61,311 nucleotides of DNA from an uncultured Planctomycetales bacterium (GCA_964583975.1 CAZOXU010000011.1:1-61311), one strand, 5' to 3'; positions 1 to 61,311 are shown, numbered from the stretch's first letter. A program made the numbers and translations. The notes: generated by a model not told the origin, from the letters alone.

Positions 1-24
1 CCTTCAACCGCGATTCCACCACAT
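1..24. repeat. Terminal direct repeat, copy 1 (ccttcaaccgcgattccaccacat), identical to 61288..61311
   Basis: The first 24 nt of the window exactly equal the last 24 nt. Confidence 0.95.
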
Positions 25-616
25 ACGCTGTCCCTGCCTCGGCGTTCTCGTAAACCACCGCCTTCTCTGGAACGATCCACACCTTGTTAAAGGTATTCAC
101 TGGTATATTGGTTGTGTTGTACTTACTTTGGGCCTCTTCATAGATTCTCTTCCAAAACTTCTTTCCCACTTCATCTTCTGGATAAATGAGCGAGGCAGTG
201 ATTTGTTTGAGCATGTAGTCTTCTGCCAACAAATCTCGGCCCATCTCCGTTAAACCAAAGCTCTCTGGCACGATACGGTCTTTTTCGTAGGGAGATAGAT
301 TAACCCAGAGATCTCGCTCTGGCACGGTAAGGCTGGCGAGGAAATATTTGATGAGTCGATTGGCTTCATCATGTAGGGGCACAGCATGCTGTGCCCCTAC
401 ATCGCCCTGATCCATAATAAATTCAAATTGAAATGGATTATCCGGATGGACCTTGATGCCTTTCAAGATGGCTGGATTGACAGCGGGGCTGAGACTGACT
501 CGGACACCGGGTGTGGGTAAACGAATTTCCTGGGCCGAGGCAGGCAAAGGCCCAAAGGTATTAATTAAGAAAGCCACAAGGATGGCTATGTGGATTAATG
601 GGGTCGGTTTTCTCAT
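1..616 (-). CDS. 5' part (about 205 codons) of a giant-exoprotein family gene: signal peptide plus conserved N-terminal module; the ORF runs off the window start
   Basis: My own translation from the ATG at 616..614 reads MRKPTPLIHIAILVAFLINTFGPLPASAQEIRLPTPG...LWVNLSPYEKDRIVPE...NTFNKVWIVPEKAVVYENAEAGTAYVVESRLK. There is no stop before position 1. By eye it is clearly homologous to residues ~40-215 of the 33305..38098 protein. It is absent from the supplied ORF track because it has no stop in the window. Confidence 0.8.
   Translation of the reverse strand, partial: MRKPTPLIHIAILVAFLINTFGPLPASAQEIRLPTPGVRVSLSPAVNPAILKGIKVHPDNPFQFEFIMDQGDVGAQHAVPLHDEANRLIKYFLASLTVPERDLWVNLSPYEKDRIVPESFGLTEMGRDLLAEDYMLKQITASLIYPEDEVGKKFWKRIYEEAQSKYNTTNIPVNTFNKVWIVPEKAVVYENAEAGTAYVVESRLK
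373..400. repeat. 28-nt perfect GC-rich palindrome GTAGGGGCACAGCATGCTGTGCCCCTAC inside coding sequence
   Basis: The sequence is its own reverse complement. It shares the GTAGGGGC...GCCCCTAC termini with the 59-nt elements at 60939 and 61188. It encodes VGAQHAVPL in frame in a variable loop of the N-terminal module. Confidence 0.9.
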
Positions 617-691
617 ATCTATATAAAGTAAAGCATATATATTTTAGAAATCAAGACCTGGAAGCCTAATCTAAGATAACGCTTTCTTTAT

Positions 692-36300: not shown

Positions 36301-38098
36301 TAATGATATTGCCCTGCGCATCTGTGATTGAAAAATTAGAACCTGTCCCTAAAATGATTCCACTGACAGCTCCAGGAGAAGCTAATTGAGTGGCAATCGT
36401 ATCGTTTAAGACGCCAACAACCTCTAATTTTCTATTATTAAGAGCTGTTTCTAACAATGCTCCTGGATTTTTATTTTGAATATCTTGAAGTTCCCAACCT
36501 TTAGCGAGACGTAAAACTGTTGCACCTCCCATAGATTGATGTGACATAGGAAAAGCAAAAGACAAACCAATCTTATAATCTTTCGATGTTTCTAAAGGTA
36601 ATTCCTTAATTTTGGAAGCCACAAAACTAAAAACATCTGCACTAGTTCTCATTTTTAACTCTTCAGGGAATTTTGCGTCTATTTGTTGAATGGTCGTAGG
36701 TTTTTGACCTGGCTGCATCCTTACTAAAACAATCTTTAAATTTGTTCCACTAAAATCAACTCCAATATAATCTCCAGATTCTCTTCCATTCGCAGGTTTA
36801 AAATATGAATTTAAATAACTCACCCCACCCACACCGCTTTTGCCATTTAATGTTGTTATTAAATTTTCCGCAAAAACATTAGACACTCTTCTAATCGATT
36901 CCGTATCCAACTCAAAACTACTTCTCATAGCTAAATCTGTTTTAGATTTCGGAGTCGTGACTCTTATATTAAAAAGACGTCCTTTTGCAGGATTTACGAT
37001 AAATCTAGCTGCATCGTTATCCCTAGGATTACTCGTTTGAGCTAGATCTAATTTTCCAAGCACCCCACCAGAGAAATATTTTCTTGGGATTACCTGTCCA
37101 TTTTGTACGTCTTCCTTAATATAGTTAAATACACCCTTCTTATACGCCTTTAAGTATTCCTTATAAATCTTCTCCTTAATGGTCTTATCTGCAGTGTCCA
37201 CCCCATTAACCTTAGCTTTATTGCTGTAAACTTGATTAAGCAACGCATCTTTAAGATTTTTCTTATACCAAGCTGCTAAAATCATCGAGTGAAAAATTTG
37301 ACGGAGATTAGCAAAATTCTTTCCCGTATTAACTTCTTTTTCCAGCTCAGGAAGAACGATATCGCGAACGATCTGGGATCCTAAATTATTGGTATCTTGG
37401 GCAACCTGATTCACGGTTTGTTTCTGCGAGGCCAAATAATCTTCTTCCAACATCACCTTCAAATGGCTTGCCACAACGAATGCTGTGTTATCATGCACAA
37501 AAACTTTAGCCTTATCAGCCACAATCCATACCTTATTAAATGTATTTACTGGAATCTCAGTTGATCCATAGAGTGCCTGAGCTTTAGCGTAAACCTTGTT
37601 CCAAAACGCCTTGCCTAATTCTTTCTCGGGATAGATCAATGATGCTGTTAATTGCTTGAGGATATAGTCTTGGGCCAGCATGTCACGTCCCATATCGGTC
37701 TGTCCTAATTCATTAGGAATAATGCGGTCTTTTTCATAAGGTGAAAGGTTAACCCATAAATTTTCTTCGGGAATGGTTAACGAAGCTAAAAAATATTTGA
37801 TGAGCTTTTCAGATTCTGTTTTTAATTGCTCTTGACCGTTGGACAAACCTGAATTTCCTGTATCCACAATAAAATCAAATAAGATGGGGTTCTCTGGATG
37901 AACGCGCAAGCCCTTAACCATCATAGGCACATAATTCTCGGTTAAACTGATCATGGTACCTGGTATGGGAAGACCCAATTCTGCGGGAGATTGAGCTAGA
38001 GCTCGAACTGGAGAAAGAAAGCTAACAATAAAACATACATTAATAACAATTGTTAAACAACGAAAAGCAAACGATTCTTTTTGTCGAGGATTCAACAT
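33305..38098 (-). CDS. Giant modular exoprotein 1 (1,597 aa): signal peptide, shared N-module, hexokinase domain, 3x repeat, UDP-sugar pyrophosphorylase-like domain, small module, shared C-module
   Basis: Uninterrupted 4.8-kb ORF. Its N- and C-terminal modules are homologous to the 54890..61311 ORF. Domain motifs are listed in the sub-features and findings. Confidence 0.88.
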   Translation of the reverse strand: MLNPRQKESFAFRCLTIVINVCFIVSFLSPVRALAQSPAELGLPIPGTMISLTENYVPMMVKGLRVHPENPILFDFIVDTGNSGLSNGQEQLKTESEKLIKYFLASLTIPEENLWVNLSPYEKDRIIPNELGQTDMGRDMLAQDYILKQLTASLIYPEKELGKAFWNKVYAKAQALYGSTEIPVNTFNKVWIVADKAKVFVHDNTAFVVASHLKVMLEEDYLASQKQTVNQVAQDTNNLGSQIVRDIVLPELEKEVNTGKNFANLRQIFHSMILAAWYKKNLKDALLNQVYSNKAKVNGVDTADKTIKEKIYKEYLKAYKKGVFNYIKEDVQNGQVIPRKYFSGGVLGKLDLAQTSNPRDNDAARFIVNPAKGRLFNIRVTTPKSKTDLAMRSSFELDTESIRRVSNVFAENLITTLNGKSGVGGVSYLNSYFKPANGRESGDYIGVDFSGTNLKIVLVRMQPGQKPTTIQQIDAKFPEELKMRTSADVFSFVASKIKELPLETSKDYKIGLSFAFPMSHQSMGGATVLRLAKGWELQDIQNKNPGALLETALNNRKLEVVGVLNDTIATQLASPGAVSGIILGTGSNFSITDAQGNIINLEAGSTNNIPESLRTESDEVVLRDSEPQGKQMFEKMISGKYLVQLLRENIRNLAKSAKEGNYLQIAQSSKWDDLESVLLGKLAIANDKLELISLIKEYLGEDISVSEAEAFEMQNISQTLLKRSGLLLGSAIAQVLKNVTVSGKKKIVIDGSVYWKNELVKQGFEEALKLEGFTPEDVEIVKVENASAVGAAVAAAVASRLLNEGDIDGGDVPNTSVTEDIWQQAENVGLSRGRLLLEFQRRQSMAGAADLRSFVLAKITTVRNKILQPASEMKDLEMEGIWQQAEGAGLQRGKLLEVFRAIQSTGNNNLQAFVQERTVEAKASGRPKSIEEVSQNVRERITEIAERDDLNANTLLGDFYQWQSEGGTNIGDFLRVRNLDRAMVGKPIASLEKALSDKVISVKASIQPLLDAYYQAVTTNNVDEVKRLDGEINKIVDGSNIYAQSKADDLKLADDVVSLSSFLSSDQAAEFQQHAKNTLLNGAYIPQFIFAGAATRLKRGPMYGLDIWELAQELGKASATDAKLRLGMGPRQILAYRLAIEQLAKDNKRNIQEVLTQQKIIVNVNADIEKDVLEDFIRNNFYGFSPANIFFVVQPTFHGFKFNNGVLEFDPNSPTVPYGHGHNFMQLAENGQAFRLDSQGQRKYITGALIDEFSDFEVISSHRINDLTKFSKDSVVSIDKIAFALAQIDRGYGVVGELVNNPSKQKGGNVLKNTKTGRSFLIETSNVKASPALVGLLDEAGKKGAPYNAFRLVYAVDKLRTILKNQLPFNLRFKDGYFYLEAVTGDVTQLPSTKAAFVSSGEDIHDLKEPKNIDDGVAFLKRSDEELIQSGLIKDGKFNSDAAMVGTNTIPSSVQINPRVFQIGDHVSIINKTGRNIALEDFFEAFRVKYGLTRGDTVRLDNVEIEINASGTIKFSDNAMATKNDDTKGGIDLNSKNMKIDVDGQKIDIRFDPAMIKQFQAGDFSGVRPVILNITPIVDMRPLLGLVPGREELLAKV
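33899..34921 (-). other. UDPGP/UAP-like nucleotide-sugar pyrophosphorylase domain within giant protein 1
   Basis: FAGAATRLKRGPMYG (compare AGGQGTRLG), VPYGHGHNF (compare P-x-G-x-G) and NPSKQKGGNVL (the K-GG region). Residues ~1060-1400. Confidence 0.55.
35699..36901 (-). other. Hexokinase-family (actin-fold sugar kinase) domain within giant protein 1
   Basis: Ordered motifs IGVDFSGTNLKIVLV, GLSFAFP, LAKGW, VLNDTIAT, ILGTGSN, NLEAGS, QMFEKMISGKYL, IDGSVY and ASAVGAAVAAAVA (residues ~400-800). Confidence 0.85.
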
Positions 38099-38257: not shown

Positions 38258-39826
38258 TTATAAGAGTTTATTTAAATTGTCGCGCGCAGGGATATAGTTA
38301 GGATTAATTCCTAAGGCTGACTTCAAAATAGCTTCTGCTTGGACCTTCTCTCCTTTAAGAATATGACATACCGCCACATTATTAAGCAAAACTACATCTT
38401 TCGGGGTTATGCCTAAGGCTTTATTAAGAGCATCAATTGCTTCATCCAAACGTCCATTTTGCATATAAATGCTAGATAAATCAGAATAAATTTCTTTGAT
38501 ATACCCCAAATAAAAATCTCGGGCCTTCTCATTGCTGGCTTTCTTTACATAGGTCTGCATGATTGCAAGGGCTCTTTGGTAAGAAACGATGGCAGCATCG
38601 TATTGCTTATCACCATAATAAGTCTTAGCTAAAAGAATATGCCCCCGAGCAAATTTATTCTCATAAGCCATGGTCCGTTCAAATAAAATTACCTGACTCC
38701 TCCAAAAAGTGTTTTGGTAAATGGCTAAACCCATTAAATAAACACAAATCATCACACTCAACCCTAAAATCATTTTAGGAGATGTGATACGTTTAAGAAC
38801 TATGGCCAAGACCAACACAATACCTACCATCGGTAGATAAAGAAAATGTTCGGCTGTTAAAATCAAAGAATACTCATTAATGAGAGGCACTATATTTAAT
38901 ACAGGAAAAAGACAAACAATAAACCAAAGTAGACCAAATACGATATCTTTTCGAGTATCAACAAATTTCCTTATAAAAATGTACAAACTAGCTGCCAGTA
39001 TCCCTAAACCTAAGAAGCCACCCCGAGGGTCTGCGAGAATATCGGTGTTACGATAATAATGAAGATCATTTGGCAAAATCAACAAACGTAGATACATGAC
39101 AATGGTATTAGGAATCGAAAGAAGTCTTAAATAAAACTCTTTGGGAGAAGCAAGGATATCATCTATCAAATGTGAACCGCTCACTACCTGACGAAGTATT
39201 AGAAATCCTACGGTTAAAATAGTAAAAATCAACCACATCACAAAACGGTCTTTTTTGTTCCTATACCAATCGATCAGAACAATCAAAGGCAATACAATAA
39301 TAGCCTGCTCCTTGGTTAGAAGAGCAAAAACAAAATAGACACAAGTTAATATAGGACGTTGTTGAAGATATCCTCGTAAAGTGAGTAATATAAAAAATGT
39401 ACAGGCTAAATTAGAAAATCCTGATATGCATGCGACCGCTTCTGTTTGTATAGGATGAATTAAAAATAACAAACTGATCCCAAAGGTCATCATCTGGGAG
39501 AATTTCAAGGTCCTTAATAACGAGCATAATAAAAGACCATTGAAAAGATGAACGATCACATTGACGCTATGAAAATAGAACGCATTAAACCCAAAGAAAT
39601 AATATTGCAGACGGTTAAGAAATTCTAAGAACGGCCTATAGTACGAATTAAGTCCAGATCCTAGCGCTGCACTATTATTGGGTTGGAAAAAGATCTCAGA
39701 TAAGTTTAAACCACTAATTTGAGTATTTTGGAGAATAAAAATAATATCATCGTGAACGAACGGATGATTGAGGGCGTTAAAGAAAACTAAAAATGTAGCC
39801 GTCGCAAGAATCAGAAGCAAAGGCAT
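38258..39826 (-). CDS. TMTC-like polytopic membrane protein with C-terminal TPR repeats (GT-C-fold protein O-glycosyltransferase-like, DUF1736 type)
   Basis: N-terminal FNALNHPFVHDDIIFILQN motif typical of TMTC-type proteins, about 10 TM helices and then TPR repeats (AKTYYGDKQYDAAIVSYQRAL...). Confidence 0.68.
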   Translation of the reverse strand: MPLLLILATATFLVFFNALNHPFVHDDIIFILQNTQISGLNLSEIFFQPNNSAALGSGLNSYYRPFLEFLNRLQYYFFGFNAFYFHSVNVIVHLFNGLLLCSLLRTLKFSQMMTFGISLLFLIHPIQTEAVACISGFSNLACTFFILLTLRGYLQQRPILTCVYFVFALLTKEQAIIVLPLIVLIDWYRNKKDRFVMWLIFTILTVGFLILRQVVSGSHLIDDILASPKEFYLRLLSIPNTIVMYLRLLILPNDLHYYRNTDILADPRGGFLGLGILAASLYIFIRKFVDTRKDIVFGLLWFIVCLFPVLNIVPLINEYSLILTAEHFLYLPMVGIVLVLAIVLKRITSPKMILGLSVMICVYLMGLAIYQNTFWRSQVILFERTMAYENKFARGHILLAKTYYGDKQYDAAIVSYQRALAIMQTYVKKASNEKARDFYLGYIKEIYSDLSSIYMQNGRLDEAIDALNKALGITPKDVVLLNNVAVCHILKGEKVQAEAILKSALGINPNYIPARDNLNKLL

Positions 39827-40186: not shown

Positions 40187-41788
40187 TTACCCTTTCAATC
40201 TTTGAGATACTAAGGTTACTATTTCATTATAAAGCAAACTGCGATCAATTGGTTTTGATACATAACCATCCATTCCACCTGCTATATAACGCTCACGATC
40301 ACCAGCCATGGCATTAGCCGTCATGGCAATAATCGGGATATGTAAACCTGTCTGTTTCTCTTCTCGACGAATAACTTGGGTTGCAGCTACGCCATCTAAA
40401 ACAGGCATGTGATCATCCATCAAAATAACATCAAAAGATTGCTTAGCAAGAAGGTCTAAAACTTCTTGTCCGTTAGTGACTGCTGTCACCTGCCAACCAA
40501 ATTTCTCTAAGGTCTTCATCGCCACCCGTTGGTTAACCATATTGTCTTCGGCTAACAAGATGCGTATATTCTTCACTTCTTCGGGGATAGATTCACCGTC
40601 TACAGCTTTCCTTGTATCTGACTGCGATTTCTTATTAAGCTCTGGATTAAAACCAAAAATAATGGTGAAACGAAATGTACTGCCTTTACCTTCAATGCTT
40701 TCCACCACAATCGATCCACGCATCATCTCGACAAGTTTTTTGCAAATCGCTAACCCTAACCCAGTTCCCCCATAACGACGGGCCGTAGTATTATGGGCTT
40801 CTGTAAAAACGTCAAAAATAGTGTCTAAGTTCTTCTTAGGGATACCAATTCCCTGATCGATCACATCAAACTTAACCACACAATCTTTTTCAGAAATAGA
40901 TTCCATTTTCACAATAACTTCAACCTTACCCTTGTGTGTAAACTTCACTGCGTTGCTGACTAAATTAACCAAAATCTGACGAAGCCTGACCGGATCTCCC
41001 ATTAAAATACGTGGAATTTGCGGATCAATAGTCCAAACCAGATCGATTTGTTTATTGCGAGCTAAAACAGCCAGACCTTTGCAAATATTTTTAATAATGT
41101 CTGGAACTTGAATCTCCATCTCTTCAATAACCACCTTGCCTGCTTCGGCACGAGAAAGGTCCAAAATATCATTAATGAGACTTAAAAGATTCTGAGCTGA
41201 ATCCTTAGCAACCACCAAATTATCTTTTTGTTCCTCGGATAAAGCAGTATCTAGCGTTAAATCCAACATCCCAATGACCGCATTCATAGGTGTACGAACT
41301 TCATGCGACATCTTGGCTAGAAATACACTCTTAGCATGATTCGCTTCTTCAGCGATCAATTTGGCTTGGACTAATTCTTGTTCGGCTAGTTTTTGCTTAG
41401 ATATGTCGTAGAGAATACCGATGGAACCAACAATATCTCCCTTGCTGTTCTTAAGGACGGCAACAGAAGCGTTGATATCTAATAAGGAACCATCCCGACG
41501 AATGACCTGGGTATTGATATCAGAAAGCATGCCCTTCTTGCGGATATCTAACGCTCGGATACGTTTCCATTCTACTTCGGGGTAAAGATCTTGGACGGGT
41601 TTGTTGAAAAGATCACTGCCACTCATTCCAAACATTCGCTCTGCCATCTGATTCCAAGCGACGATGCGTTCTTGAGCATCGGTCACCGTGATAGCTGAGG
41701 GAGAGTTTTCGAAAATAATTCGAAACATCTCCTTCGACTGCAAAACATCATCGTCTATCTGGTTTTGAGCGCTTTTTTTATGGATCAT
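40187..41788 (-). CDS. Hybrid sensor histidine kinase (PAS - HisKA - HATPase_c - REC)
   Basis: PAS region, H-box MSHEVRTPMNAV, N/G boxes (NLVSNAVKFT, DQGIGI, GGTGLGLAI) and a C-terminal receiver (ILLAEDN...ILMDDHMPVLDG...KP). Confidence 0.9.
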   Translation of the reverse strand: MIHKKSAQNQIDDDVLQSKEMFRIIFENSPSAITVTDAQERIVAWNQMAERMFGMSGSDLFNKPVQDLYPEVEWKRIRALDIRKKGMLSDINTQVIRRDGSLLDINASVAVLKNSKGDIVGSIGILYDISKQKLAEQELVQAKLIAEEANHAKSVFLAKMSHEVRTPMNAVIGMLDLTLDTALSEEQKDNLVVAKDSAQNLLSLINDILDLSRAEAGKVVIEEMEIQVPDIIKNICKGLAVLARNKQIDLVWTIDPQIPRILMGDPVRLRQILVNLVSNAVKFTHKGKVEVIVKMESISEKDCVVKFDVIDQGIGIPKKNLDTIFDVFTEAHNTTARRYGGTGLGLAICKKLVEMMRGSIVVESIEGKGSTFRFTIIFGFNPELNKKSQSDTRKAVDGESIPEEVKNIRILLAEDNMVNQRVAMKTLEKFGWQVTAVTNGQEVLDLLAKQSFDVILMDDHMPVLDGVAATQVIRREEKQTGLHIPIIAMTANAMAGDRERYIAGGMDGYVSKPIDRSLLYNEIVTLVSQRLKG

Positions 41789-52645: not shown

Positions 52646-53565
52646 CGACCTAAAGCCTCGCTGTAACCTTTTTCAGCAATGTAAGAACTACGCACCAAAG
52701 GACCGCTTTCAACATATTTAAATCCCATTTCCAGACCTAAAACACGAAAATCTTCAAACTCAGCAGGGGTGACGAATCTTTGAACCGGTAAATGTCTTTT
52801 CATGCGGGTGGGAGCCAGATATTGTCCAATAGTTAAAATTTGACAGCCGCTGTCTAAAAGCTGCTGCATTAATTCAAGAACTTCTTGCCTGGTTTCGCCT
52901 AAGCCCACCATAAAAGAAGATTTTACAAACGAGGTAGGATTTAATTGAGCAAAGCGTTGCAAAACTCTTAAAGATCTTTCATGCGACGCTTGGGGGCGAA
53001 TATTATCACTTAATCGGCTGACGGTTTCGATATTATGCCCTATCACCTCTGGCGCAGCCTTGCTTAAAATCTCTAAAGACTCCTCTTTGGCTGAGAAATC
53101 AGGTATTAAAACTTCAATCTTCACCTCAGGAGTCAGTGTGCGTATCGCCTTAATCGTATCGGCAAAATGATTGGCCCCTTCATCTTTAAGATCATCTCGA
53201 GCTACCGAAGTGATCACCACATACCTAAGTTTAAGTTTCTGGACTGCAAGCGCTACTTTTTGAGGTTCATCAATATCTAAAACATCTGGTCTGCCAGCTG
53301 GTACAGAACAAAAACGACAGGCACGTGTGCAGGTCCCACCTAAGATCATAAAAGTAGCCACCCCGGCCTTCCAGCAGGTACCCATATTAGGACAATTGGC
53401 ACTCTCGCAAACCGTATGCAATCCTGAAGAACGAAACAAAGCCTTCATGGAATTGATCTGGTCCATTTCTGGTAGCGGCTGCTTAAACCACTCAGGGAGC
53501 ACATTTAAACCATTATCAAATTTCTTAAGCGCGGTCGTGTTCATTGTCTTGGTCTTTTCCAACAT
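52642..53565 (-). CDS. lipA: Lipoyl synthase
   Basis: CESANCPNMGTCW and TCTRACRFC cluster motifs. Confidence 0.92.
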   Translation of the reverse strand: MLEKTKTMNTTALKKFDNGLNVLPEWFKQPLPEMDQINSMKALFRSSGLHTVCESANCPNMGTCWKAGVATFMILGGTCTRACRFCSVPAGRPDVLDIDEPQKVALAVQKLKLRYVVITSVARDDLKDEGANHFADTIKAIRTLTPEVKIEVLIPDFSAKEESLEILSKAAPEVIGHNIETVSRLSDNIRPQASHERSLRVLQRFAQLNPTSFVKSSFMVGLGETRQEVLELMQQLLDSGCQILTIGQYLAPTRMKRHLPVQRFVTPAEFEDFRVLGLEMGFKYVESGPLVRSSYIAEKGYSEALGR

Positions 53566-54043
53566 AAATCCCGTCTTTAATCTCTTTGAGGACTATTTTG
53601 CGCTCCGAAGGTGTGAGGTAATCCAAAATCAACTTGCCTTGCAAATGGTCGTTTTCATGCTGAAAAACCTTGGCTAAAAGTCCGGAAACTTTGGCCCTCA
53701 CTACTTCATTGTTTTCATCGATAAATTCAACTTCTAAATCCTTAGCTCTTTTGACGTTCACATGAAGATTAGGAATGCTTAAACACCCTTCTTCAGATTC
53801 TTCCGAGCCAGAGGACTTTATGATTTTAGGATTAATAATAGCCAAAGCATCCTTACCCGTATCTACGACAAAAATCTGTTCATTAATGCCCACTTGAGGG
53901 GCTGCCAACCCGATTCCTTTTTGCGCACGCATCGTATCAAACATCGATGCAATCAAAATACGTTCAGCAGGACCAACTTCTTTGACCGGCTTAGATTTGG
54001 CCCTCAGACAAGAATCTCCGTATAAACGAATTTTCAGCTGCAT
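53525..54043 (-). CDS. def: Peptide deformylase
   Basis: GIGLAAPQVG, EGCLS and HENDHL motifs. Confidence 0.92.
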   Translation of the reverse strand: MQLKIRLYGDSCLRAKSKPVKEVGPAERILIASMFDTMRAQKGIGLAAPQVGINEQIFVVDTGKDALAIINPKIIKSSGSEESEEGCLSIPNLHVNVKRAKDLEVEFIDENNEVVRAKVSGLLAKVFQHENDHLQGKLILDYLTPSERKIVLKEIKDGIYVGKDQDNEHDRA

Positions 54044-54048
54044 AGGGC

Positions 54049-54402
54049 TTACACTTTTTTTAATTTGTTATTGGAATCCAGATAAACAACCTTGGGTTTC
54101 AAGGTCTTGGCTTCTTTTTGGGTACAAATAGCGTAACTTAAAATGATAAGCTTGTCTCCCACATACCCTTGACGGGCGGCAGGGCCATTAAGGCATATCT
54201 CTCCCGAACCAGCTCGACCTGCAATGACATAGGTTTCCAAGCGATTGCCATTATTCACATTAAGCACATGGACTTTTTCGCCAGGAATCATACCGACTGC
54301 TTTAATAAGGTTTGAATCAATGGTAATGCTGCCTTCATAATAGAGTTCTGCAGCGGTCAATGTGGCTTGGCCAATTTTAGATTTTAGCACTTCAATTTGC
54401 AT
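54049..54402 (-). CDS. panD: Aspartate 1-decarboxylase
   Basis: LKSKIGQATLTAAELYYEGSITID with the G-S self-processing site. 117 aa. Confidence 0.92.
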   Translation of the reverse strand: MQIEVLKSKIGQATLTAAELYYEGSITIDSNLIKAVGMIPGEKVHVLNVNNGNRLETYVIAGRAGSGEICLNGPAARQGYVGDKLIILSYAICTQKEAKTLKPKVVYLDSNNKLKKV

Positions 54403-54468
54403 TACAAACTCCTAAATGAGTCCTGCAACTTAACAGGACGAATTTATCCCGAGCTATCGGCGAGGGAT

Positions 54469-54789
54469 CTATAAATGCGGATTTAATTTCGCTAATAATT
54501 TATCCTTAGGCATGGCCCCCACAAACTGGTCTACTGGCTCGCCTTTTTTGAACACAATCAGGGTTGGAATCGACATAACGTTAAATTGACCTGCCAAATC
54601 AGGCGATTCATCGACATTAAGCTTGGCAACCTTCAATTTACCCGCCAATTCGGTCGCGACTTGGTCAAGAATGGGGCTAAGCATCTTGCAAGGTCCACAC
54701 CATTCAGCCCAAAAATCCACCAAAACTGGGATCGAGCTGTCTAAAACCTCAGTTTTAAAGTTATTTTGATCTAAGTGTACTGCTGCCAT
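54469..54789 (-). CDS. trxA: Thioredoxin
   Basis: WAEWCGPCK active site. 106 aa. Confidence 0.93.
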
Positions 54790-54838
54790 AGTGTTACTCC
54801 TTTGATAAGAGGATCTGAAAGATCCAAATTGAGCTCGT

Positions 54839-54867
54839 ATTATATAGGCTCATTAATTATATATCAA
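54839..54867 (-). promoter_or_regulatory. Sigma70-type promoter for trxA
   Basis: The minus strand reads TTGATA (54867..54862), a 17-nt spacer, then TATAAT (54844..54839). The ~45-nt leader contains a GGATC-tgaaa-GATCC hairpin and an AAGGAG RBS. Confidence 0.5.
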
Positions 54868-54889
54868 ATAATATTATAAAGGGTTGGAG

Positions 54890-57800
54890 TTATGATGCCG
54901 CTGCCAGCTGGGTGACTGGTGTCTGGGTACTGATCCCTAAAAACTTCCTGAGATCAGTCATGGGCTGGATATTGATAATCACGGGATAAAAACCTGGGGC
55001 GTTTTGCAGTTGGGCAAGCTGTGCTGGGTCTAAATTAAACTTTATACCTCCATTAGCATTTTGGGTTTGTAGAAATTTGTCAGAGGTAAGGTCAATACCA
55101 CCTTTTTTGATCATTGCGCTATCTCTGACTAATGAACCTTTCTTAAATAAACTTGAAGCATTAGTCATAGCCGCATCTTCTGCCTTAGACATATCTAAAA
55201 TCTTCGGAAGGATTTCAACACCCAAAGACAATATTCCTGACAGATGCGCGCTAGGCGATCCTGGAATACCTTTTCCTTGAAAATAACTCGGCGGCTTTCC
55301 TAAAGAGCCGAAAAGTCTCTGACTATCTTCGGCAGGCGTCAACTCATCATCTACGACAGTGGCAAGCAAAACATTCTGACCATCCTTGGATGGCACTGCA
55401 GAAGCCAATTGATCCAAGTTTAAATCTCTCATAACTGAATCGACATCTTCTGGAACGAGCCCTTTTTGACGGAATAATTCTTGAATACCCGCATATCGAT
55501 CTCCCTGACTCCAAAGAAGGTGAGAATAATTAACGATAGGGACTATTGTGAAAAGATTTCGCACTAATGGATCTATCAGGTAGGTGCTTGTTGCCACACT
55601 ACCCGTAATGCTTTGCCCTGTTACAGATATTCTAGAGGGATCTATTTCTGGACGATCAGCAAGCCATCGTACAGAAACCAAGGTATCGGCAATCGATTGC
55701 ATAATAAAAGTTTTAAACTTTTCTGCATCAAAATCCAAAGCCACATATCGTTGTACAGAATTCATTCCTTGTGTTCCAGCAGCTGAACGTTTAGCGTATA
55801 AAGGCATTCCTACTTCCAATACCGCAACGCCTTTGCTAGCTAAATAAATAGAAATAAGACGGGCCAGCGTATCTTGTTCATAAAAACTACACAAAACGAC
55901 TCCGGGTAAAAGTTTTCCATCAGTTGTTTTAGGAAGGAAATATCTCGCATAAACATGTTCTGAATTAGGAAAGGCGGATTTATTAAAGGCAGATCGATAG
56001 GTTAGTTCTTGAATAGAAAACGGCTGAGCTTCAGGTGGAGATGTCTTTAATCTTTCTACCATTTGAAGCAGATCAGCAAGCAAAGGAGAATTTTTCATCA
56101 ATTTCTTTAACTGACCGAGAATATAATTAAGAGCTGCATCATCAGTTAAGGCCAAAATTTCTTCTTGTGTCAATGAGCGCAATTGATAATCAACGGTGTT
56201 AATATTTCCCTGAGGATCTCGATCTATCTTTAAATTCGTATCAGTTGGAAGAAATGCGATGTTCTGAGATAGATTTAAACCTGTTAGTTGAGATAATTCT
56301 TCTACAACATCTCTACCTTGTGCCATCGCAGCATCTTGCTTAGGATCGCTCTCCGCTTCCCAATTACCTTTAAAATCTGGAACGACTTCAAAATCATAAT
56401 CAAAAATGTCAAAAGTAATGGTTGATTCAATTAATACCGGTACTGGAAACTCTCCTTCGCGAGAGGGCGCCAACCATTGTAAATCAAAATTTCCAAGAAC
56501 ATCTTGGTCTAAATGAATACCCACCTTATTCAAACGTGCGACAAGAAGTTGAAAATCATGCCGAATGAGTTCATAAACATACGTTTGAAATTCTTCCCAT
56601 CTATTAGGATCTATTCCATAGGCCGCTAAGACATCACGATACCTTTCATCTTCTTTCAACAAGTCATAAGCTTGTTCACGTCCAGAATTATTGGAAAAGA
56701 ACGAAGAACTACCGATACGGGTACTCTGAATCCAGGATGGAGATCTAGAAAAATCTGGATCAGGTTCAAACTTACCGGTTTTTAAATTTCCTCGAAATAA
56801 AAAACGACTTTCGTAAGATTTTCCGTCTAATTTAAAAGCGTTAAAAACAGATTCCATTCCTCCAGAATCATAAATTCTTTCATTCAAAACAACTAATTTC
56901 CATAAACCATCTAAAATCTCAACGGCATCGGTTGTTGAGGTATCTAATGTAAAATGCATACTGTTTAAATCTGGGTCTCTATAAGGAGTAATTTTGTAGT
57001 TATCAAAATACTTAATGACTTTCTCTTGATAAGGATCTTGAAATGAAGGTGAATTGGTATAAGAAAATGTGATGGTCAGATTAGAATCTTTTCCTTTATG
57101 AATATAAAAAATTCCTCTTCCATAGGAACCCGTGTTGGGTTTGAAAATAACTGGCAAAGAAATCTCACCAGACACAATTTGTTGGGCTACTTCTCTAAAA
57201 TTAGCGACATCTCTTGGGTCTGTTAAAGCTTGTAAATAGGATTCGTCTGAAAAACGCATTTCGTCTAATTCTTGAATCACATCAGAATCTCTTTTAAAAG
57301 CAACAAACCAATCGGGCTGACGAACCTTACCGCCCTTAAGTAATTCCCTCATCCCCCACTTACTAGCCAAAAGTCGCTGTATATCAAGAATACTAACCTT
57401 GGCGCTTTGCATTGCTGCATCAACTTTGTAAACTTCTCGCTTCATAGAATCATAAAAAACCGGCTCAGCATTACTCAACTTCTTCCTTCTCCAATTGATG
57501 ATTCCCACTTGAGGGTCAACCATAGATTGGACACCTAGATTAACCATAAGGGCACTCGCTTGAATGCTATGGACAAAAGCTACAACGATGATCTTCCTTC
57601 CTCCATTAAATTTCTTTCTTAATTTCATCCTAGCTTTAAAATCATCCAATCCTTTCTTAGTTCGAATCAGAAGATTTAAATAACTTTCCGAAGGAGAATG
57701 ACCTGAAATACTAGGTAATGTTGCAGTCGCATCCATGCCTCTATTAAAACGATATAAGAACTCTCGCACACCTCTTCCTTCTTTTTGAATATCTGCTACC

Positions 57801-60800
57801 CCTTTTTCATCGAGCAATCCCAAGGATATCTCATCTAAAAAGCTTTCCACATTTGGTTCAATCTTATGCCCTGTTTTATCTTTAACTAGATCCAGAAAAT
57901 CTTGGGCAGTTTGTTGAGTACGATCTTTGGAACTAGTTATAACAACCACATCTGCATTAGATTCAATGTCAGGCCTTAGTTTAGAAAACAAAATCTTTGC
58001 CCCCGCTAGTGACTGTTCCTTACCTTTTAGAGTTAATAAATTTCTTCTTCCTGGAATTAAAATACCTGCATTAGAGTATGTTTGCCCATGTCTTTCCCAA
58101 TAAAAACTAAAATCATCTTGCGAAATTGAAACAAGAGGATCTATTCCATTGAATTTAATTTGACCAGATCCATTAACTAAAACCTTCTCATCTAACTCTT
58201 TTAAGGGTTTCCATTCCGATGGTCTGAGTAAATAAAATCGTGAGATTCCTTTAAAATTTCTCAATACCACCTCTCCTAATTTAATTTCATTAGGATTAAT
58301 TTTCGCAAATCGAATACGCAGCACCGCACCGTCTTCATCTCGCAAAACATCCCTTCTGTCTAAAAGACTCACCTCCGCTTCAGGATGAATTTTCTGAGCA
58401 TAAGAACGCATACTTAATAGACCTTCACCTTTTCCTCCAATTCTGTGATTACCAGCTAACTTTTGAGCTAATTTCTCTTCAGTAGTTTCAGCCTCTTTGA
58501 TAGATAATCCATTGTTTACTACATCAATATTTACAAAACCATCTTTTTCATAAACATAAAAATCAATTTTTAAACTTTTGTTGTCTGGTATTTTACCAAT
58601 GTCTATTCCATGTATAAAAGCATCCGCAGAATTTTCTATGGCATGAATAAATATAGATTCTAACAAAGAAACCACAAGTCTTTGATGACCGTCTTTATGG
58701 ACGACCAGCATTTTCTGGGATCCAAAATCTGAACTCTGATTTCCTAAAATAGAGGCAATTTTGTGATCCATAGGAAGGACGATTTCTTCTAATCTTCCCC
58801 ATACTCTTTGTAGTCCTTCTTTTTTAGAAAGGCTGGTTAATATTGGGAAATCTTCTTTAGAAAATTCGATCGTTCCTAAAGAAAATAACTTTTCCGCCTC
58901 CATCGCTGCATCTTTTGTGGTCGATCTTAATAAGGATTCCAAATCTTGTCTTACGCTCTTATCTTTAGGATCAAGCTCTATTGCTTTTCGAAAGGCCGCT
59001 TCTGCCCTCTTAAAATCATGTAACTTGGTTAGCACGCGTCCAAGACTTTTATAGGCATTTGTATACCGGGGGCTCTCTTCTATTGCTTTTAAATAAGCCT
59101 CCTCCGCTCCTTCTAAGTCACCTTTATTTTCCAATAAAAATCCTAAATTGTAACGTAGCCAAGAATTTCTTGAATCAAGCTTTATGCCTGTTCGAAAAGA
59201 CGCTTCAGCTCGTGCTAAATCACCCTTCTTCATCAATAGAAGTCCAAGATTGTTATAAGCGATTTGGTATTTAGGATTTATCTTTAATGCTGTTAAATAT
59301 GCTGTTTCAGCTCCTGTTAAATCACCTTTACTGTCTAACAAATCCCCTAAAGAAACGTATGCACTCATATCTTTAGGATCAAGCTCTATTTCTTTATGAT
59401 GCGCAGCCTCTGCTCCTGCCAAGTCTCCTTTATGCATCAGAAAAATTCCTAAATTCTGATAAAAACTTCCAATTATTCCTAATTGCCACGGTAAAATCCT
59501 AACAACCTGCAAATCATTCTTTCCTTTAAAATCAAATGTTAAACCTTCATTAGAGATATCTTTTTCGATTGGCAATTTCACAATAAAACTAAAATCTAAT
59601 TCTCCCGAAGGCCTCAACTCCTCAGAAGGTTCTGCGATATAGTATCGTCCATCAGATAACCTAACTAATATAAAGACATGATCTATTTCTGAAACCAGGT
59701 AAACCTTCTTAATTCCAATTGCATCCAAGTACAATGCCATTAAAGCACTTCTGCCGACACAATTAATTTCCTTAGTAAGTCGTATCCGAATTGGAGAGGC
59801 TTCATTTAAAGCAGAATAATCTTTATCTGTCCACCCGTGCATTTTGATAATTAACCGCATAATTTTATTGATGGCTTGGATTTCAAGCTCTGCACCAGCT
59901 AAAGGCGATCTCTCTCTTGCCTTTTGTATTTCTGCCTTTAATTGCTCTGTATCAATCTGATCAAAACGCTTAGCTTTCCTTTGAAACCCAAACGACTCTA
60001 ATGAAGAGAGCTTTGGTGACTCATTCTTAGATCTTGCTAAATCTTCTTTTAATAAATGCATCCCTCTTAAATAAGTTTGATTTTCTATATCAATCTGGAC
60101 ATGGCGTACGGTCAATTGAATGGCTTTGGTCATAAGAGTCTGCAGCTCATCAAGTTTCTGTGAATCTTTTAACCCAAGCCATTCTTTAATCTCTCTTTCT
60201 TGCTCCAAATCTAGGGGCTTTTGATTTGAAGAAACATGATCCACATGAAATCCATCCGGGATTTTCAAGTCACTATTGTCTTGAGCCAAAATGTATCCTA
60301 AAGCATCAAATAGACCAATAACCTGTTCATGTTCTTGAGTTTTTTGATTCTCATATCTCTGAGCCAAATACCTTGCAGCGTCTCTAAACTTTCCAGAAAT
60401 TCTAGGCAAGGTTCGTTCCTTATCGCTCAAAGGAAGATCCCTAATCTTTTGTGTTAATTCTATAGTTTCTTTAACGTTTATGTCTTCTGGCAACTTGAAA
60501 TGATAAAAAATTTCCCCATTGGTATTCGCAAGCTTTTCAGGTACTAGAAAATCAACCGCTTCTTGACCTCGCGGAACAAATTGCACAACAATATGATCTG
60601 TTAATGGCAGCCAGGCGTATTGATCCTTCTGTCCTTTCTGCGAGCCCGCAAAACGCTTGCGTTCTTGCTCAGTTTCCCATACTGGTTTACTTAAAACTTG
60701 ATCAAGTTTAACTTCTATTCTCATTTTCCCTGCAAGACTAGTCATGGCCGAATCACCAATCACAGATGGGTCTTGACTAATTCTCATAGCTTGAGAAGGT

Positions 60801-61311
60801 TGCAACAACATTCCTCCAGAGAAATATTTGCGAGGCACAGGCTGCTGGGTTATAGGATCAGGCTCTTCTTTGATGTAGTTGTACACGCCTTTTTTGAATG
60901 CTTGGAGGTACCGTTGATAAATTGATTCAACATCCTCGGTAGGGGCAGGCCCCTGTGCCTGCCCGGCTTGAGGGCGACCACGGGGGGTCGCCCCTACGAT
61001 TTTATTCTTATCCGTATACACCCGAGCCAGGATGCTGTCCTTTATTTTCTTCTTGTACCACGTAGCTAGGATTAAAGAATTGTAAACTTGTCTAAGTTGG
61101 GCGAAGTTTTGTCCTTCATTGACTTCGCGGGTGAGTTCGGGGATGACGATTTCACGGATGATGTTATTTCCCAATATATTGGTATCCGTAGGGGCAGGCC
61201 CCTGTGCCTGCCCTTCTTGAGGGCGACCACGGGGGGTCGCCCCTACACCGTTTTTGGATTCCGATAAATAATCTGCCTCTAGCATCACCTTCAACCGCGA
61301 TTCCACCACAT
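54890..61311 (-). CDS. Giant modular exoprotein 2 (>2,139 aa, 5' end off the window edge and apparently continued at 616..1): shared N-module, unknown region, transglutaminase-like Cys protease, TPR, GHKL ATPase-like, histidine phosphatase, ATP-grasp-like, alpha/beta hydrolase-like, shared C-module
   Basis: Uninterrupted 6.4-kb ORF open at the window end. The first codon in the track is an edge GTG, not a real start. Its N- and C-terminal modules are homologous to the 33305..38098 protein. Confidence 0.88.
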   Translation of the reverse strand, partial: VVESRLKVMLEADYLSESKNGVGATPRGRPQEGQAQGPAPTDTNILGNNIIREIVIPELTREVNEGQNFAQLRQVYNSLILATWYKKKIKDSILARVYTDKNKIVGATPRGRPQAGQAQGPAPTEDVESIYQRYLQAFKKGVYNYIKEEPDPITQQPVPRKYFSGGMLLQPSQAMRISQDPSVIGDSAMTSLAGKMRIEVKLDQVLSKPVWETEQERKRFAGSQKGQKDQYAWLPLTDHIVVQFVPRGQEAVDFLVPEKLANTNGEIFYHFKLPEDINVKETIELTQKIRDLPLSDKERTLPRISGKFRDAARYLAQRYENQKTQEHEQVIGLFDALGYILAQDNSDLKIPDGFHVDHVSSNQKPLDLEQEREIKEWLGLKDSQKLDELQTLMTKAIQLTVRHVQIDIENQTYLRGMHLLKEDLARSKNESPKLSSLESFGFQRKAKRFDQIDTEQLKAEIQKARERSPLAGAELEIQAINKIMRLIIKMHGWTDKDYSALNEASPIRIRLTKEINCVGRSALMALYLDAIGIKKVYLVSEIDHVFILVRLSDGRYYIAEPSEELRPSGELDFSFIVKLPIEKDISNEGLTFDFKGKNDLQVVRILPWQLGIIGSFYQNLGIFLMHKGDLAGAEAAHHKEIELDPKDMSAYVSLGDLLDSKGDLTGAETAYLTALKINPKYQIAYNNLGLLLMKKGDLARAEASFRTGIKLDSRNSWLRYNLGFLLENKGDLEGAEEAYLKAIEESPRYTNAYKSLGRVLTKLHDFKRAEAAFRKAIELDPKDKSVRQDLESLLRSTTKDAAMEAEKLFSLGTIEFSKEDFPILTSLSKKEGLQRVWGRLEEIVLPMDHKIASILGNQSSDFGSQKMLVVHKDGHQRLVVSLLESIFIHAIENSADAFIHGIDIGKIPDNKSLKIDFYVYEKDGFVNIDVVNNGLSIKEAETTEEKLAQKLAGNHRIGGKGEGLLSMRSYAQKIHPEAEVSLLDRRDVLRDEDGAVLRIRFAKINPNEIKLGEVVLRNFKGISRFYLLRPSEWKPLKELDEKVLVNGSGQIKFNGIDPLVSISQDDFSFYWERHGQTYSNAGILIPGRRNLLTLKGKEQSLAGAKILFSKLRPDIESNADVVVITSSKDRTQQTAQDFLDLVKDKTGHKIEPNVESFLDEISLGLLDEKGVADIQKEGRGVREFLYRFNRGMDATATLPSISGHSPSESYLNLLIRTKKGLDDFKARMKLRKKFNGGRKIIVVAFVHSIQASALMVNLGVQSMVDPQVGIINWRRKKLSNAEPVFYDSMKREVYKVDAAMQSAKVSILDIQRLLASKWGMRELLKGGKVRQPDWFVAFKRDSDVIQELDEMRFSDESYLQALTDPRDVANFREVAQQIVSGEISLPVIFKPNTGSYGRGIFYIHKGKDSNLTITFSYTNSPSFQDPYQEKVIKYFDNYKITPYRDPDLNSMHFTLDTSTTDAVEILDGLWKLVVLNERIYDSGGMESVFNAFKLDGKSYESRFLFRGNLKTGKFEPDPDFSRSPSWIQSTRIGSSSFFSNNSGREQAYDLLKEDERYRDVLAAYGIDPNRWEEFQTYVYELIRHDFQLLVARLNKVGIHLDQDVLGNFDLQWLAPSREGEFPVPVLIESTITFDIFDYDFEVVPDFKGNWEAESDPKQDAAMAQGRDVVEELSQLTGLNLSQNIAFLPTDTNLKIDRDPQGNINTVDYQLRSLTQEEILALTDDAALNYILGQLKKLMKNSPLLADLLQMVERLKTSPPEAQPFSIQELTYRSAFNKSAFPNSEHVYARYFLPKTTDGKLLPGVVLCSFYEQDTLARLISIYLASKGVAVLEVGMPLYAKRSAAGTQGMNSVQRYVALDFDAEKFKTFIMQSIADTLVSVRWLADRPEIDPSRISVTGQSITGSVATSTYLIDPLVRNLFTIVPIVNYSHLLWSQGDRYAGIQELFRQKGLVPEDVDSVMRDLNLDQLASAVPSKDGQNVLLATVVDDELTPAEDSQRLFGSLGKPPSYFQGKGIPGSPSAHLSGILSLGVEILPKILDMSKAEDAAMTNASSLFKKGSLVRDSAMIKKGGIDLTSDKFLQTQNANGGIKFNLDPAQLAQLQNAPGFYPVIINIQPMTDLRKFLGISTQTPVTQLAAAS
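55310..55942 (-). other. Alpha/beta-hydrolase-like domain in giant protein 2
   Basis: LLPGVVLCSFYEQ..., the IDPSRISVTGQSITGSVA nucleophile-elbow-like segment, and the later VVDDELTP. Confidence 0.42.
56390..57172 (-). other. ATP-grasp-like domain in giant protein 2
   Basis: LPVIFKPNTGSYGRGIFYI (K-P-x-x-G-S-x-G-x-GI) followed by a ~250-aa alpha/beta region. Weak, motif-level only. Confidence 0.4.
57515..58117 (-). other. Histidine phosphatase (phosphoglycerate-mutase-like) domain in giant protein 2
   Basis: The FYWERHGQTYSN RHG motif, with a downstream IVVAFVHSIQASAL second-His region. Confidence 0.5.
58385..58657 (-). other. GHKL (HATPase_c-like) ATP-binding domain in giant protein 2
   Basis: N-box-like IHAIENSADA, G1-like VVNNGLSI and G2-like GGKGEGLLSM, in the canonical order. 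Confidence 0.45.
58940..59482 (-). other. Five to six tandem TPR repeats in giant protein 2
   Basis: Recurrent 34-aa units: GDLAGAEAAHHKEIELDPKD, GDLTGAETAYLTALKINPKY, GDLARAEASFRTGIKLDSRN, GDLEGAEEAYLKAIEESPRY, HDFKRAEAAFRKAIELDPKD. Confidence 0.85.
59636..59830 (-). other. Transglutaminase-like / papain-fold cysteine protease core in giant protein 2
   Basis: INCVGRSALMALYLDAIGI (Cys517) ... IDHVFILVRLSDGRYYIAEP (His544, then an acidic residue). This is the typical C-H-D/E spacing of transglutaminase-like domains. Confidence 0.5.
60939..60997. repeat. 59-nt GC-rich double-hairpin element, copy A, in frame in giant gene 2
   Basis: GTAGGGGCAGGCCCCTGTGCCTGCCCGGCTTGAGGGCGACCACGGGGGGTCGCCCCTAC. 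Stems GGGCAGGC/GCCTGCCC and GGGCGACC/GGTCGCCC, with terminal inverted repeats GTAGGGG/CCCCTAC. It encodes VGATPRGRPQAGQAQGPAPT. Confidence 0.92.
61188..61246. repeat. 59-nt GC-rich double-hairpin element, copy B, in frame in giant gene 2
   Basis: Identical to copy A except for 2 nt in the linker (CCCTTCTTGAGG versus CCCGGCTTGAGG). It encodes VGATPRGRPQEGQAQGPAPT. Confidence 0.92.
61288..61311. repeat. Terminal direct repeat, copy 2, identical to 1..24
   Basis: The last 24 nt of the window exactly equal the first 24 nt. Confidence 0.95.

Follow-up and report, generated by a model that had tools for sequence, protein, structure and literature searches.

The 61,311-nucleotide stretch of DNA examined here (GCA_964583975.1 CAZOXU010000011.1:1-61311; "the window") is labelled as belonging to an uncultured Planctomycetales bacterium. 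It carries two giant open reading frames (ORFs), ORF1 and ORF2, both on the minus strand. ORF2 (54890..61309) encodes 2139 amino acids (aa) followed by a stop codon. Its N-terminus is cut off by the window edge, and its first residue is equivalent to aa 208 of ORF1, a complete paralogue. An earlier reading of the sequence alone (the sequence-only reading) had noticed that the tetrapeptide D-[A/S]-A-M occurs six times in ORF2, and had proposed that it marks every domain boundary. We found that these tetrapeptides are the local view of a family-wide D-x-A-M feature (written D.AM below). This very large family is specific to Omnitrophota, which are ultra-small bacteria that depend on hosts, have mostly not been cultured and are known for very long multi-enzyme proteins.

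Both giants follow the same design. ORF1 begins with a predicted signal peptide (aa 1-35, ALA|QS), continues with a conserved N-module (aa 36-345), a hexokinase (aa 392-797) and more cargo, and ends with a C-module (aa 1527-1597). Read by eye, ALA|QS is preceded at the N-terminus by a basic n-region and a hydrophobic core, i.e., a predicted Sec signal peptide, and the hexokinase keeps IGLSFAFP, NDTIAT and GTGSN, which we take to be hexokinase motifs. The N-module, recognizable by WVNLSPYE and by its PRKYFSGG end, is complete in ORF1 and represented by its last 166 residues in ORF2; the two are 47% identical over 168 aa. The C-modules (42% identity over 60 aa) lie at the extreme C-terminus of both proteins and share the pattern GGIDL..(F.DPA)..PVI.NI.P...LG, which in ORF1 reads GGIDLN..F.DPAM...PVILNITPI...LLGL. 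An exact look-up of ORF1 in public assemblies gave no match, although its sequence is the cluster representative P0173. Because a third copy of the N-module occurs at 2..643, the window carries at least three genes of this family.

The six D[AS]AM coordinates given in the sequence-only reading are exact (Table 1). Only one more D[AS]AM exists in all six frames of the window, and it is in ORF1 (33767..33778). In stop-free segments of 100 aa or more, D.AM occurs 11 times in the window, each time within ORF1 or ORF2. Six copies had been judged very unlikely by chance, and 1000 residue shuffles of ORF2 bear this out: they have on average 0.017 D[AS]AM (maximum 1) and 0.19 D.AM (maximum 3), compared to six observed. 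Given this expectation, the tetrapeptides are real and far beyond chance, and we rejected chance as their origin.

The motifs were also correctly placed after the N-module, after the TPR block, after the histidine phosphatase, after the hydrolase and before the C-module. The N-module ends with PRKYFSGG at aa 166, and DSAM follows at 186. The TPR block ends at roughly aa 795, with DAAM at 800. The His_Phos_1 match (aa 1073-1245) reaches profile position 147/194, with DAAM at 1297, and the AXE1 match (aa 1782-1992) reaches position 278/321, with DAAM at 2045. The last DSAM (2063) is 3 residues ahead of GGID (2070). However, the original wording must be narrowed from every domain boundary to every cassette boundary, because cassettes A and B each consist of an unassigned region plus a recognizable domain, with no motif between them. 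A motif likewise stands at the boundary of the module that had been called ATP-grasp-like, but that label comes from sub-threshold matches only (E 0.017-0.019).

Table 1. Motifs, modules and cassettes of the family proteins in the window, and motif-domain junctions in related proteins
Protein	Feature	Residues (aa)	Window position (strand)	Remarks
ORF2	Partial N-module	1-166	60812..61309 (-)	Ends PRKYFSGG; 47% identity to ORF1 aa 208-347
ORF2	SQAM	172-175	60785..60796 (-)	Weaker seventh site, 6 residues past N-module; S.AM variants occur in family
ORF2	Delimiter 1, DSAM	186-189	60743..60754 (-)	
ORF2	Cassette A	190-799	58913..60742 (-)	~420-aa region without family match, then TPR block 612-795
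ORF2	Delimiter 2, DAAM	800-803	58901..58912 (-)	
ORF2	Cassette B	804-1296	57422..58900 (-)	Unassigned ~270-aa region, then histidine phosphatase (His_Phos_1, aa 1073-1245)
ORF2	Delimiter 3, DAAM	1297-1300	57410..57421 (-)	
ORF2	Cassette C	1301-1658	56336..57409 (-)	Sub-threshold ATP-grasp matches only
ORF2	Delimiter 4, DAAM	1659-1662	56324..56335 (-)	
ORF2	Cassette D	1663-2044	55178..56323 (-)	Alpha/beta-hydrolase (AXE1-type esterase)
ORF2	Delimiter 5, DAAM	2045-2048	55166..55177 (-)	
ORF2	Spacer between delimiters 5 and 6		55124..55165 (-)	14 aa, TNASSLFKKGSLVR
ORF2	Delimiter 6, DSAM	2063-2066	55112..55123 (-)	
ORF2	C-module		54893..55111 (-)	IKKGGIDLTS...FNLDPAQLAQLQNAPGFYPVIINIQPMTDLRKFLGI + tail
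ORF1	Giant ORF, complete paralogue	1-1597	33305..38098 (-)	
ORF1	DLAQ	351-354	37037..37048 (-)	Variant directly behind N-module; same DLAQ in relative L001
ORF1	Delimiter DLAM	388-391	36926..36937 (-)	Immediately before Hexokinase_1 match (from 392, profile position 6); low model confidence (pLDDT <50)
ORF1	Delimiter DRAM	980-983	35150..35161 (-)	
ORF1	Delimiter DAAM	1441-1444	33767..33778 (-)	
ORF1	Delimiter DNAM	1517-1520	33539..33550 (-)	8 residues ahead of GGID
ORF1	DPAM in C-module		33434..33445 (-)	Fixed structural position ~20-30 residues past GGID, not a linker site
Third paralogue	N-terminal 214 aa		2..643 (-)	Runs off left window edge; 54% identity to ORF1 aa 14-214
L046	DKAM	2401		URO-D ends 2395 (profile position 345/346); HPr from 2411 (profile position 2)
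L032	DRAM	1143		REC from 1153 (profile position 1)
L038	SSPI	1104		PGK from 1118 (profile position 3)
L064	SSPI	1458		REC from 1464 (profile position 1)

The analysis defines a very large family. Its conserved ends match neither Pfam nor NCBIfam models, and solved structures contain no match to its N-module. Members have a predicted signal peptide (consensus A.AQ at its putative site), an N-module of ~310-350 aa that ends in PRKYFSGG, variable cargo and a C-module of ~60-70 aa that opens with GGIDL. In total, 8,404 representative clusters (50% identity) match the N-module at E<=0.001, always at the protein N-terminus, and at least 581 loci are present in GTDB species representatives, often as tandem arrays. 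A word-indexed search gave 1,514 matches; all named ones are Omnitrophota/Omnitrophica, except for two labelled as archaeal metagenome-assembled genomes. An AlphaFold2 model of the N-module has a mean predicted local distance difference test (pLDDT) score of 78. Comparing this model to the PDB with Foldseek returned nothing significant. The best candidates, NheA/ClyA-type alpha-pore-forming toxins (E 0.15, template-modelling score ~0.11-0.15), were treated as no match.

To place the motif in its family, we used 117 family ORFs from 80 GTDB loci, with 586 non-family ORFs of the same loci as background. The family ORFs contain 242 D.AM, or 1.51 per 1000 aa, compared to 0.17 in the background. 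When the remaining two positions are fixed, the enrichment is 6.6-fold for D, 6.7-fold for A and 10.4-fold for M, while position 2 is free. All other enriched patterns are fixed pieces of the N-module. In a second, independent set of 121 cluster representatives (pairwise identity <=50%), D.AM has a density of 2.37 per 1000 aa of cargo. The flanks are almost information-free: M tends to be followed by an aliphatic residue or Ala, and then by S, G or T. Their composition is to a modest degree that of linkers, as P, S, T and A are more frequent and W, Y, F, H and C less so. Sites can also be tandem, as 81 of 408 inter-motif gaps in the family are spacers of at most 40 aa.

D.AM sites cluster 1-60 residues past PRKYFSGG and 1-20 residues ahead of GGID. 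Among 96 full-length representatives, 51% have the motif just behind the N-module and 44% just ahead of the C-module. We also scanned 11 family proteins with Pfam, namely ORF1, ORF2 and nine others (six of the D.AM type and three of an SSP[VLI] type explained below). None of their 86 cargo delimiters is inside a Pfam-matched stretch, compared to 15.7 expected at random, and none of 20,000 permutations gave so low a number. The motifs lie in linkers. In the AlphaFold2 model, the DLAM of ORF1 belongs to a segment with pLDDT <50.

Many members lack D.AM, and an unbiased search for enriched 4-mers in them revealed two replacements. SSPV occurs 16 times compared to once in a background of 225,626 aa, and SAAM occurs 13 times, also compared to once; both are absent from D.AM-rich members. 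SAAM and SSP[VLI] take the positions of D.AM: behind the N-module, directly ahead of GGI[DN] and 3 residues before REC position 1. For example, L064 and L065 have nine or ten SSP[VLI] sites, with the first one behind the N-module and the last one adjoining GGINLNP, and three tandem paralogues in L058 have 7, 3 and 3 SAAM sites. Within a genome, the types D.AM/S.AM/SSP are nearly exclusive (DATDQB 24/0/0, L071 27/0/1, L058 0/13/0, L064 0/0/9, L065 0/0/10).

Both L038 paralogues use SSP despite having different C-module subtypes. Conversely, the C-module subtype LQIKRDG.GVPLP is found with D.AM in L032, L040 and L056, and with SSP in L064 and L038. In these sequences, the motif type follows the genome and not the module subtype. 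Sites are also retained, as all nine in L064 are kept in L065 (86% identity). Such a swap as a set across all paralogues of a genome, with position kept and chemistry not, would be expected of a site that one trans-acting factor per genome reads. In each of the three motif types, the last two residues are a small one and then a hydrophobic one (A-M, A-M, P-V/L/I). Taken as a putative P2-P1, this [A/P]-[M/V/L/I] ending resembles serine-protease substrates on their non-prime side, e.g., AAPV, AAPM and AAPF.

Judged by sequence matches, what lies between two motifs is a whole protein or a small protein of several domains, rather than a single domain. The cargo consists mostly of cytoplasmic-type enzymes and signalling domains (Pfam). 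Enzymes of central carbon metabolism include hexokinase, phosphoglycerate kinase (PGK), class I aldolase, phosphoenolpyruvate (PEP) carboxykinase, isocitrate lyase and malate synthase, and those of sugar nucleotides are UDP-sugar pyrophosphorylase and NAD-dependent epimerase. We also found uroporphyrinogen decarboxylase (URO-D), cytidine deaminase, methyltransferase, histidine phosphatase and esterase, as well as HPr, receiver (REC) domains, protein kinase, SNF2 helicase, TPR and ankyrin.

Motif sites often lie 1-11 residues ahead of profile position 1-6 of HPr, REC, PGK and hexokinase, or 6 residues past the end of URO-D. This spacing, the whole-protein cassettes and the existence of small ORFs with only a C-module (see below) would fit a fusion scar, in which M is the fossil start codon of a former gene or an internal start still in use, and D-x-A stems from a conserved upstream sequence. 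We nevertheless regard such a scar as improbable. Only 5% of motif ATGs have a Shine-Dalgarno-like 4-mer upstream; the share is 8.5% for the remaining internal Met codons and 31% for the annotated starts of the window. Moreover, selection on D and A is for the amino acid, since every synonymous codon is used. In SSP[VLI] lineages, the corresponding position has no Met, and motifs also stand before the C-module and before 14-aa spacers, which are not former genes. Internal translation starts were rejected on the first and third of these points.

Cargo homology between members is bounded by the motif. Of the homology blocks, 32% have a motif within 20 residues of their start, compared to 12% (at most 22%) with randomized positions, and 33% have one that close to their end, compared to 11%. 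Blocks that span an internal motif number 47, with 125 expected. The closest relative of ORF1, L001 (JBGAJA010000003.1), has N- and C-modules that are each 76% identical to those of ORF1, but the ~1200-1800 aa of cargo have no detectable similarity, and its junctions read DLAQ and N-x-A-M. By sequence comparison, the entire cargo has been replaced between these close relatives. The cargo of ORF2 (aa 804-2139) has a single homologue match, P0164, a multi-enzyme protein without N- and C-modules and without the motif.

The cargo replacement and the homology blocks that end at motifs could also suggest a signal in the DNA, i.e., the in-frame footprint of a recombination site for swapping cassettes. 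Such a site would have only 12 nucleotides, and the codons argue against it. Aspartate in the motif is encoded by GAT (59%) or GAC (41%), alanine by all four of its codons, and the serines of the ORF2 motifs by TCG and AGC. Given these degenerate codons and the free x position, selection acts on the peptide and not on the DNA. We therefore rejected a recombination signal, which we consider highly improbable.

In sum, the data show a motif that does not occur at random, runs through the family and is under selection as a peptide. It sits in linkers, coincides with cassette borders and switches from genome to genome. The earlier suggestion of a conserved linker or processing site holds insofar as the motif is a conserved delimiter between modules that is found in linkers, stays out of Pfam-matched stretches and is exchanged for another in other genomes. 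The same reading had offered two alternatives, a polyprotein or modules added as cassettes. Both gain comparative support, from the linker sites, from the homology blocks bounded by the motif and from the cargo swap between ORF1 and L001.

The explanation we tentatively prefer is that D-x-A-M is a site for an endopeptidase acting in trans, and that the family proteins are polyproteins. The motif would be a four-residue recognition site in flexible linkers of putatively exported modular proteins, and would part the N-terminal carrier module, each cargo cassette and the C-terminal module from one another. The endopeptidase would be encoded elsewhere in the genome, and would probably cut after the hydrophobic last residue, such that D-x-A-M corresponds to P4-P1. 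In other lineages, S-A-A-M or S-S-P-[V/L/I] would be the equivalent sites. The long ORFs would then be polyproteins that, once exported, are divided into cargo enzymes and end modules. That cutting occurs, where the cut lies, that the enzyme acts in trans and what becomes of the products is what we infer from the sequence patterns. Processed polyproteins should have a conserved site outside domains, where units that fold independently adjoin one another, and this is what we found. Our confidence nonetheless falls a little short of even, because neither a product nor an enzyme has been seen.

Several further results weigh against cleavage. No peptidase recurs beside family genes in the 80 loci, and none is near the giants in the window, whose neighbours are housekeeping genes. 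Many domain junctions within cassettes have no motif. A delimiter is not detectable in 28 of the 121 representatives, and in the motif-less genomes L037, L033, JAEUSC, CAIUQE, CAIOTT and CAZYOA a search for another delimiter found nothing convincing. Since about a quarter of the members and whole genomes have no delimiter, processing is not obligatory for the family. Structural models cover only two cases, one of which, with two ORF2 sites (aa 1663-2139), is poor: its alignment has depth only over the C-module, its mean pLDDT is 50.6 and the C-module core alone is usable. Finally, DPAM or DPAQ starts a helix in the folded C-module (pLDDT 73-86), such that the copies in linkers could be structural caps.

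Since this helix begins with D-P-A-M/Q and roughly a quarter of members lack a delimiter, an uncut docking or linker role is a serious rival, which we consider possible, though on the unlikely side. In this explanation, the proteins remain tethered multi-enzyme arrays, and the motif is either a favoured helix cap or linker element, which lets cassettes fold independently, or a linear motif to which a partner binds. This partner could be an export chaperone or adaptor, a TPR protein or the family's own N- or C-module. The DLAM of ORF1 is modelled as a short helix, TPR proteins are encoded beside family genes (at 38258..39826 in the window and at 6 loci), and no protease was found nearby, all of which fit this explanation. 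However, a structural cap leaves unexplained the genome-wide swap to the chemically different SSP[VLI], the tandem copies and the lack of conservation in the flanks. With spacers of 8-40 aa, the tandem sites fit redundant sites better than domain caps. The binding-partner version does fit the swap, tandem and flank data, and sequence alone cannot distinguish binding from cleavage.

As the processing enzyme, the sequence-only reading had suggested a transglutaminase-like Cys protease within ORF2 that cuts the giant protein in cis (C517). By direct reading, aa 514-560 (NCVGRSAL...IDHVFILVRLSDGRYYIAEPSE) could form a Cys-His-acidic arrangement, which is followed by TPRs. Database searches lend no support to this domain: the region around C517 has no match in Pfam (E<=1) or among PDB sequences (E<=10), and NCBIfam matches only the TPR part of cassette A. 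Nor did Pfam find a peptidase domain in ORF1, which has four linker sites, in ORF2 or in the nine other motif-bearing members. Since ORF1 and these relatives have no detectable protease domain, the candidate would not be a general enzyme, and we rejected cleavage in cis, to which we give hardly any credence.

Multi-enzyme metabolic cluster proteins, which are long and have signal peptides, have been described in Omnitrophota (bioRxiv 10.64898/2026.06.07.730766). Post-translational cleavage has been suggested for giant Omnitrophota proteins, with the statement that information on where they are cut is lacking (bioRxiv 10.1101/2023.11.21.568195). The family resembles both groups in its phylum, its predicted signal peptide and its tiling with many unrelated metabolic Pfam domains. 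Term searches of these two texts did not find a delimiter motif, and the words "motif", "linker" and "cleavage" do not occur in the former.

The family also resembles two known kinds of systems in its logic, but fails their membership tests. MARTX toxins (multifunctional-autoprocessing RTX) of Vibrio and relatives have conserved ends, swappable effector domains that fold independently and unstructured linkers that serve as processing sites, and they are cut in cis after Leu with little further specificity. As in MARTX, long proteins (whose export is predicted here) have conserved ends that bracket interchangeable cargo, which differs between close relatives. By contrast, our family has no RTX or glycine-rich repeats and no C80 cysteine protease domain (Pfam, NCBIfam), and no type I secretion genes are next to the giants in the window. 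Moreover, it has a defined tetrapeptide, no cis protease was found and its cargo is composed of housekeeping-type metabolic enzymes. Polymorphic toxins have demarcation motifs, e.g., VENN in CdiA and PxxxxDPxGL in Rhs. Like these, D.AM is a short peptide that borders a conserved delivery part and variable, exchanged cargo in paralogous arrays. Unlike these, the variable part is central, the C-terminus is conserved and each protein has several cassettes, each flanked by the motif. No immunity gene is evident (a peptide deformylase is downstream of ORF2), and the cargo does not consist of recognizable toxins.

Other similarities are more limited. In T9SS proteins with a C-terminal domain (CTD) and PorU, and in PEP-CTERM proteins with exosortase, a dedicated peptidase removes a C-terminal sorting domain. 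The present family similarly has a small C-terminal domain closely preceded by a putative processing site (1-20 residues before GGID), but no model of these domains matches (Pfam, NCBIfam), and the site also occurs after the N-module and between cassettes. The P97/P102 adhesin paralogues of Mycoplasma hyopneumoniae are surface proteins that are cut into several fragments at the motif S/T-X-F|X-D/E, and this processing is experimentally established. Here too a short motif runs through a paralogous family, but the proteins are unrelated, the motif is another one and processing is inferred. In contrast to chlamydial Pmp proteins (PVC group; GGA(I/L/V) and FxxN repeats, autotransporter barrel), there is no Pmp or autotransporter Pfam match, and the motif is in linkers and does not belong to a repeat fold.

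The system would be a kind of bacterial array of modular polyproteins or effectors, in a family whose conserved modules are absent from Pfam and NCBIfam. A more far-reaching and speculative scheme, which we consider unlikely as a whole, is a hitherto unrecognized effector-polyprotein system of Omnitrophota. A Sec-exported carrier, made up of the N-module and the GGIDL C-module, would bring strings of complete cytoplasmic-type enzymes out of the cell, possibly into host or prey. A co-evolving dedicated protease would read a lineage-specific cleavage code (D-x-A-M, S-A-A-M or S-S-P-[VLI]) and release the enzymes. The strings in this scheme would comprise hexokinase, PGK, aldolase, PEP carboxykinase, isocitrate lyase, HPr, receiver domains and helicases. 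The data raise the question of why complete ATP-dependent cytoplasmic enzymes sit behind a predicted signal peptide.

The tetrapeptide is present in about three-quarters of the sampled representatives, and is a testable prediction of where such proteins divide. It brackets the tested cargo cassettes and changes as a unit between genomes. It also provides a rule for splitting these proteins into units for structure prediction and annotation, and the motif type of each genome is a handle for finding the responsible enzyme by co-variation. In the speculative effector-polyprotein scheme, the motif code might also supply the missing cleavage map for the very long proteins of this phylum.

We now note further observations on the family and its surroundings. 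Small ORFs of ~110-155 aa that contain only the C-module occur on contigs of 27-218 kb (P0001, P0004, P0007, P0009 and P0016). The C-module follows a short unique region, with neither N-module nor signal peptide, and these ORFs may be genuine genes or the split-off ends of longer ones. Among these five, only P0001 (NMAM) and P0016 (DPVM) have a loose variant of the motif. In 15 C-module-only proteins that we read, D/N-x-A-M is often just ahead of GGID (e.g., P0003, P0027 and P0028). At loci L067, L057 and L036, the N-module ends with ...RKYFSGGID.. or with ..GGIDAAM or GGVDAAM, such that GGID both closes the N-module and opens the C-module. These sequences suggest an ancestral protein with contiguous N- and C-modules, into which cargo was inserted at GGID.

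Recurrent neighbours in the 80 loci are hybrid histidine kinases, a MacB-type ABC transporter, TPR proteins, a GT2 glycosyltransferase and a GFO/IDH/MocA oxidoreductase. The top recurrent cluster was an antisense artefact. The transporter is a fused protein (ABC_tran + MacB_PCD + FtsX, ~680 aa) found at 10 of the 80 loci (L011, L018, L021, L028, L029, L033, L039, L052, L060 and L061), but not in the window. Hybrid histidine kinases occur at another 10 loci. Between the two giants of the window are a PAS-HisKA-HATPase-REC kinase (40187..41788) and the TPR protein mentioned above. Downstream of ORF2 and separated from it by ~850 bp (54044..54889) with no ORF of at least 150 aa is the peptide deformylase (53525..54043, minus strand). 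We dismissed a link between this enzyme and the Met of the motif; it is probably coincidental housekeeping context and is not among the families that recur across loci.

Two kinds of repeats occur within the giants. Between the hexokinase and DRAM of ORF1 (aa ~800-980, ~35150..35700), there are 2-3 internal repeats of ~55 aa (…WQQAE.(V/A)GL.RG.LL..F…) without a family match. In the N-module of ORF2, a GC-rich repeat of 62 nucleotides that comprises two hairpins occurs twice in frame (60936..60997 and 61185..61246). The copies are 95% identical, translate to VGATPRGRPQ(E/A)GQAQGPAPT and coincide with two loops that vary in the family. Their 23-nucleotide core occurs nowhere else in the window. 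Comparable in-frame GC-rich insertions (…DSRFRGND…) break the C-modules of the homologues P0027, P0038 and P0042, and these repeats recall the palindromic elements found inserted within Rickettsia genes.

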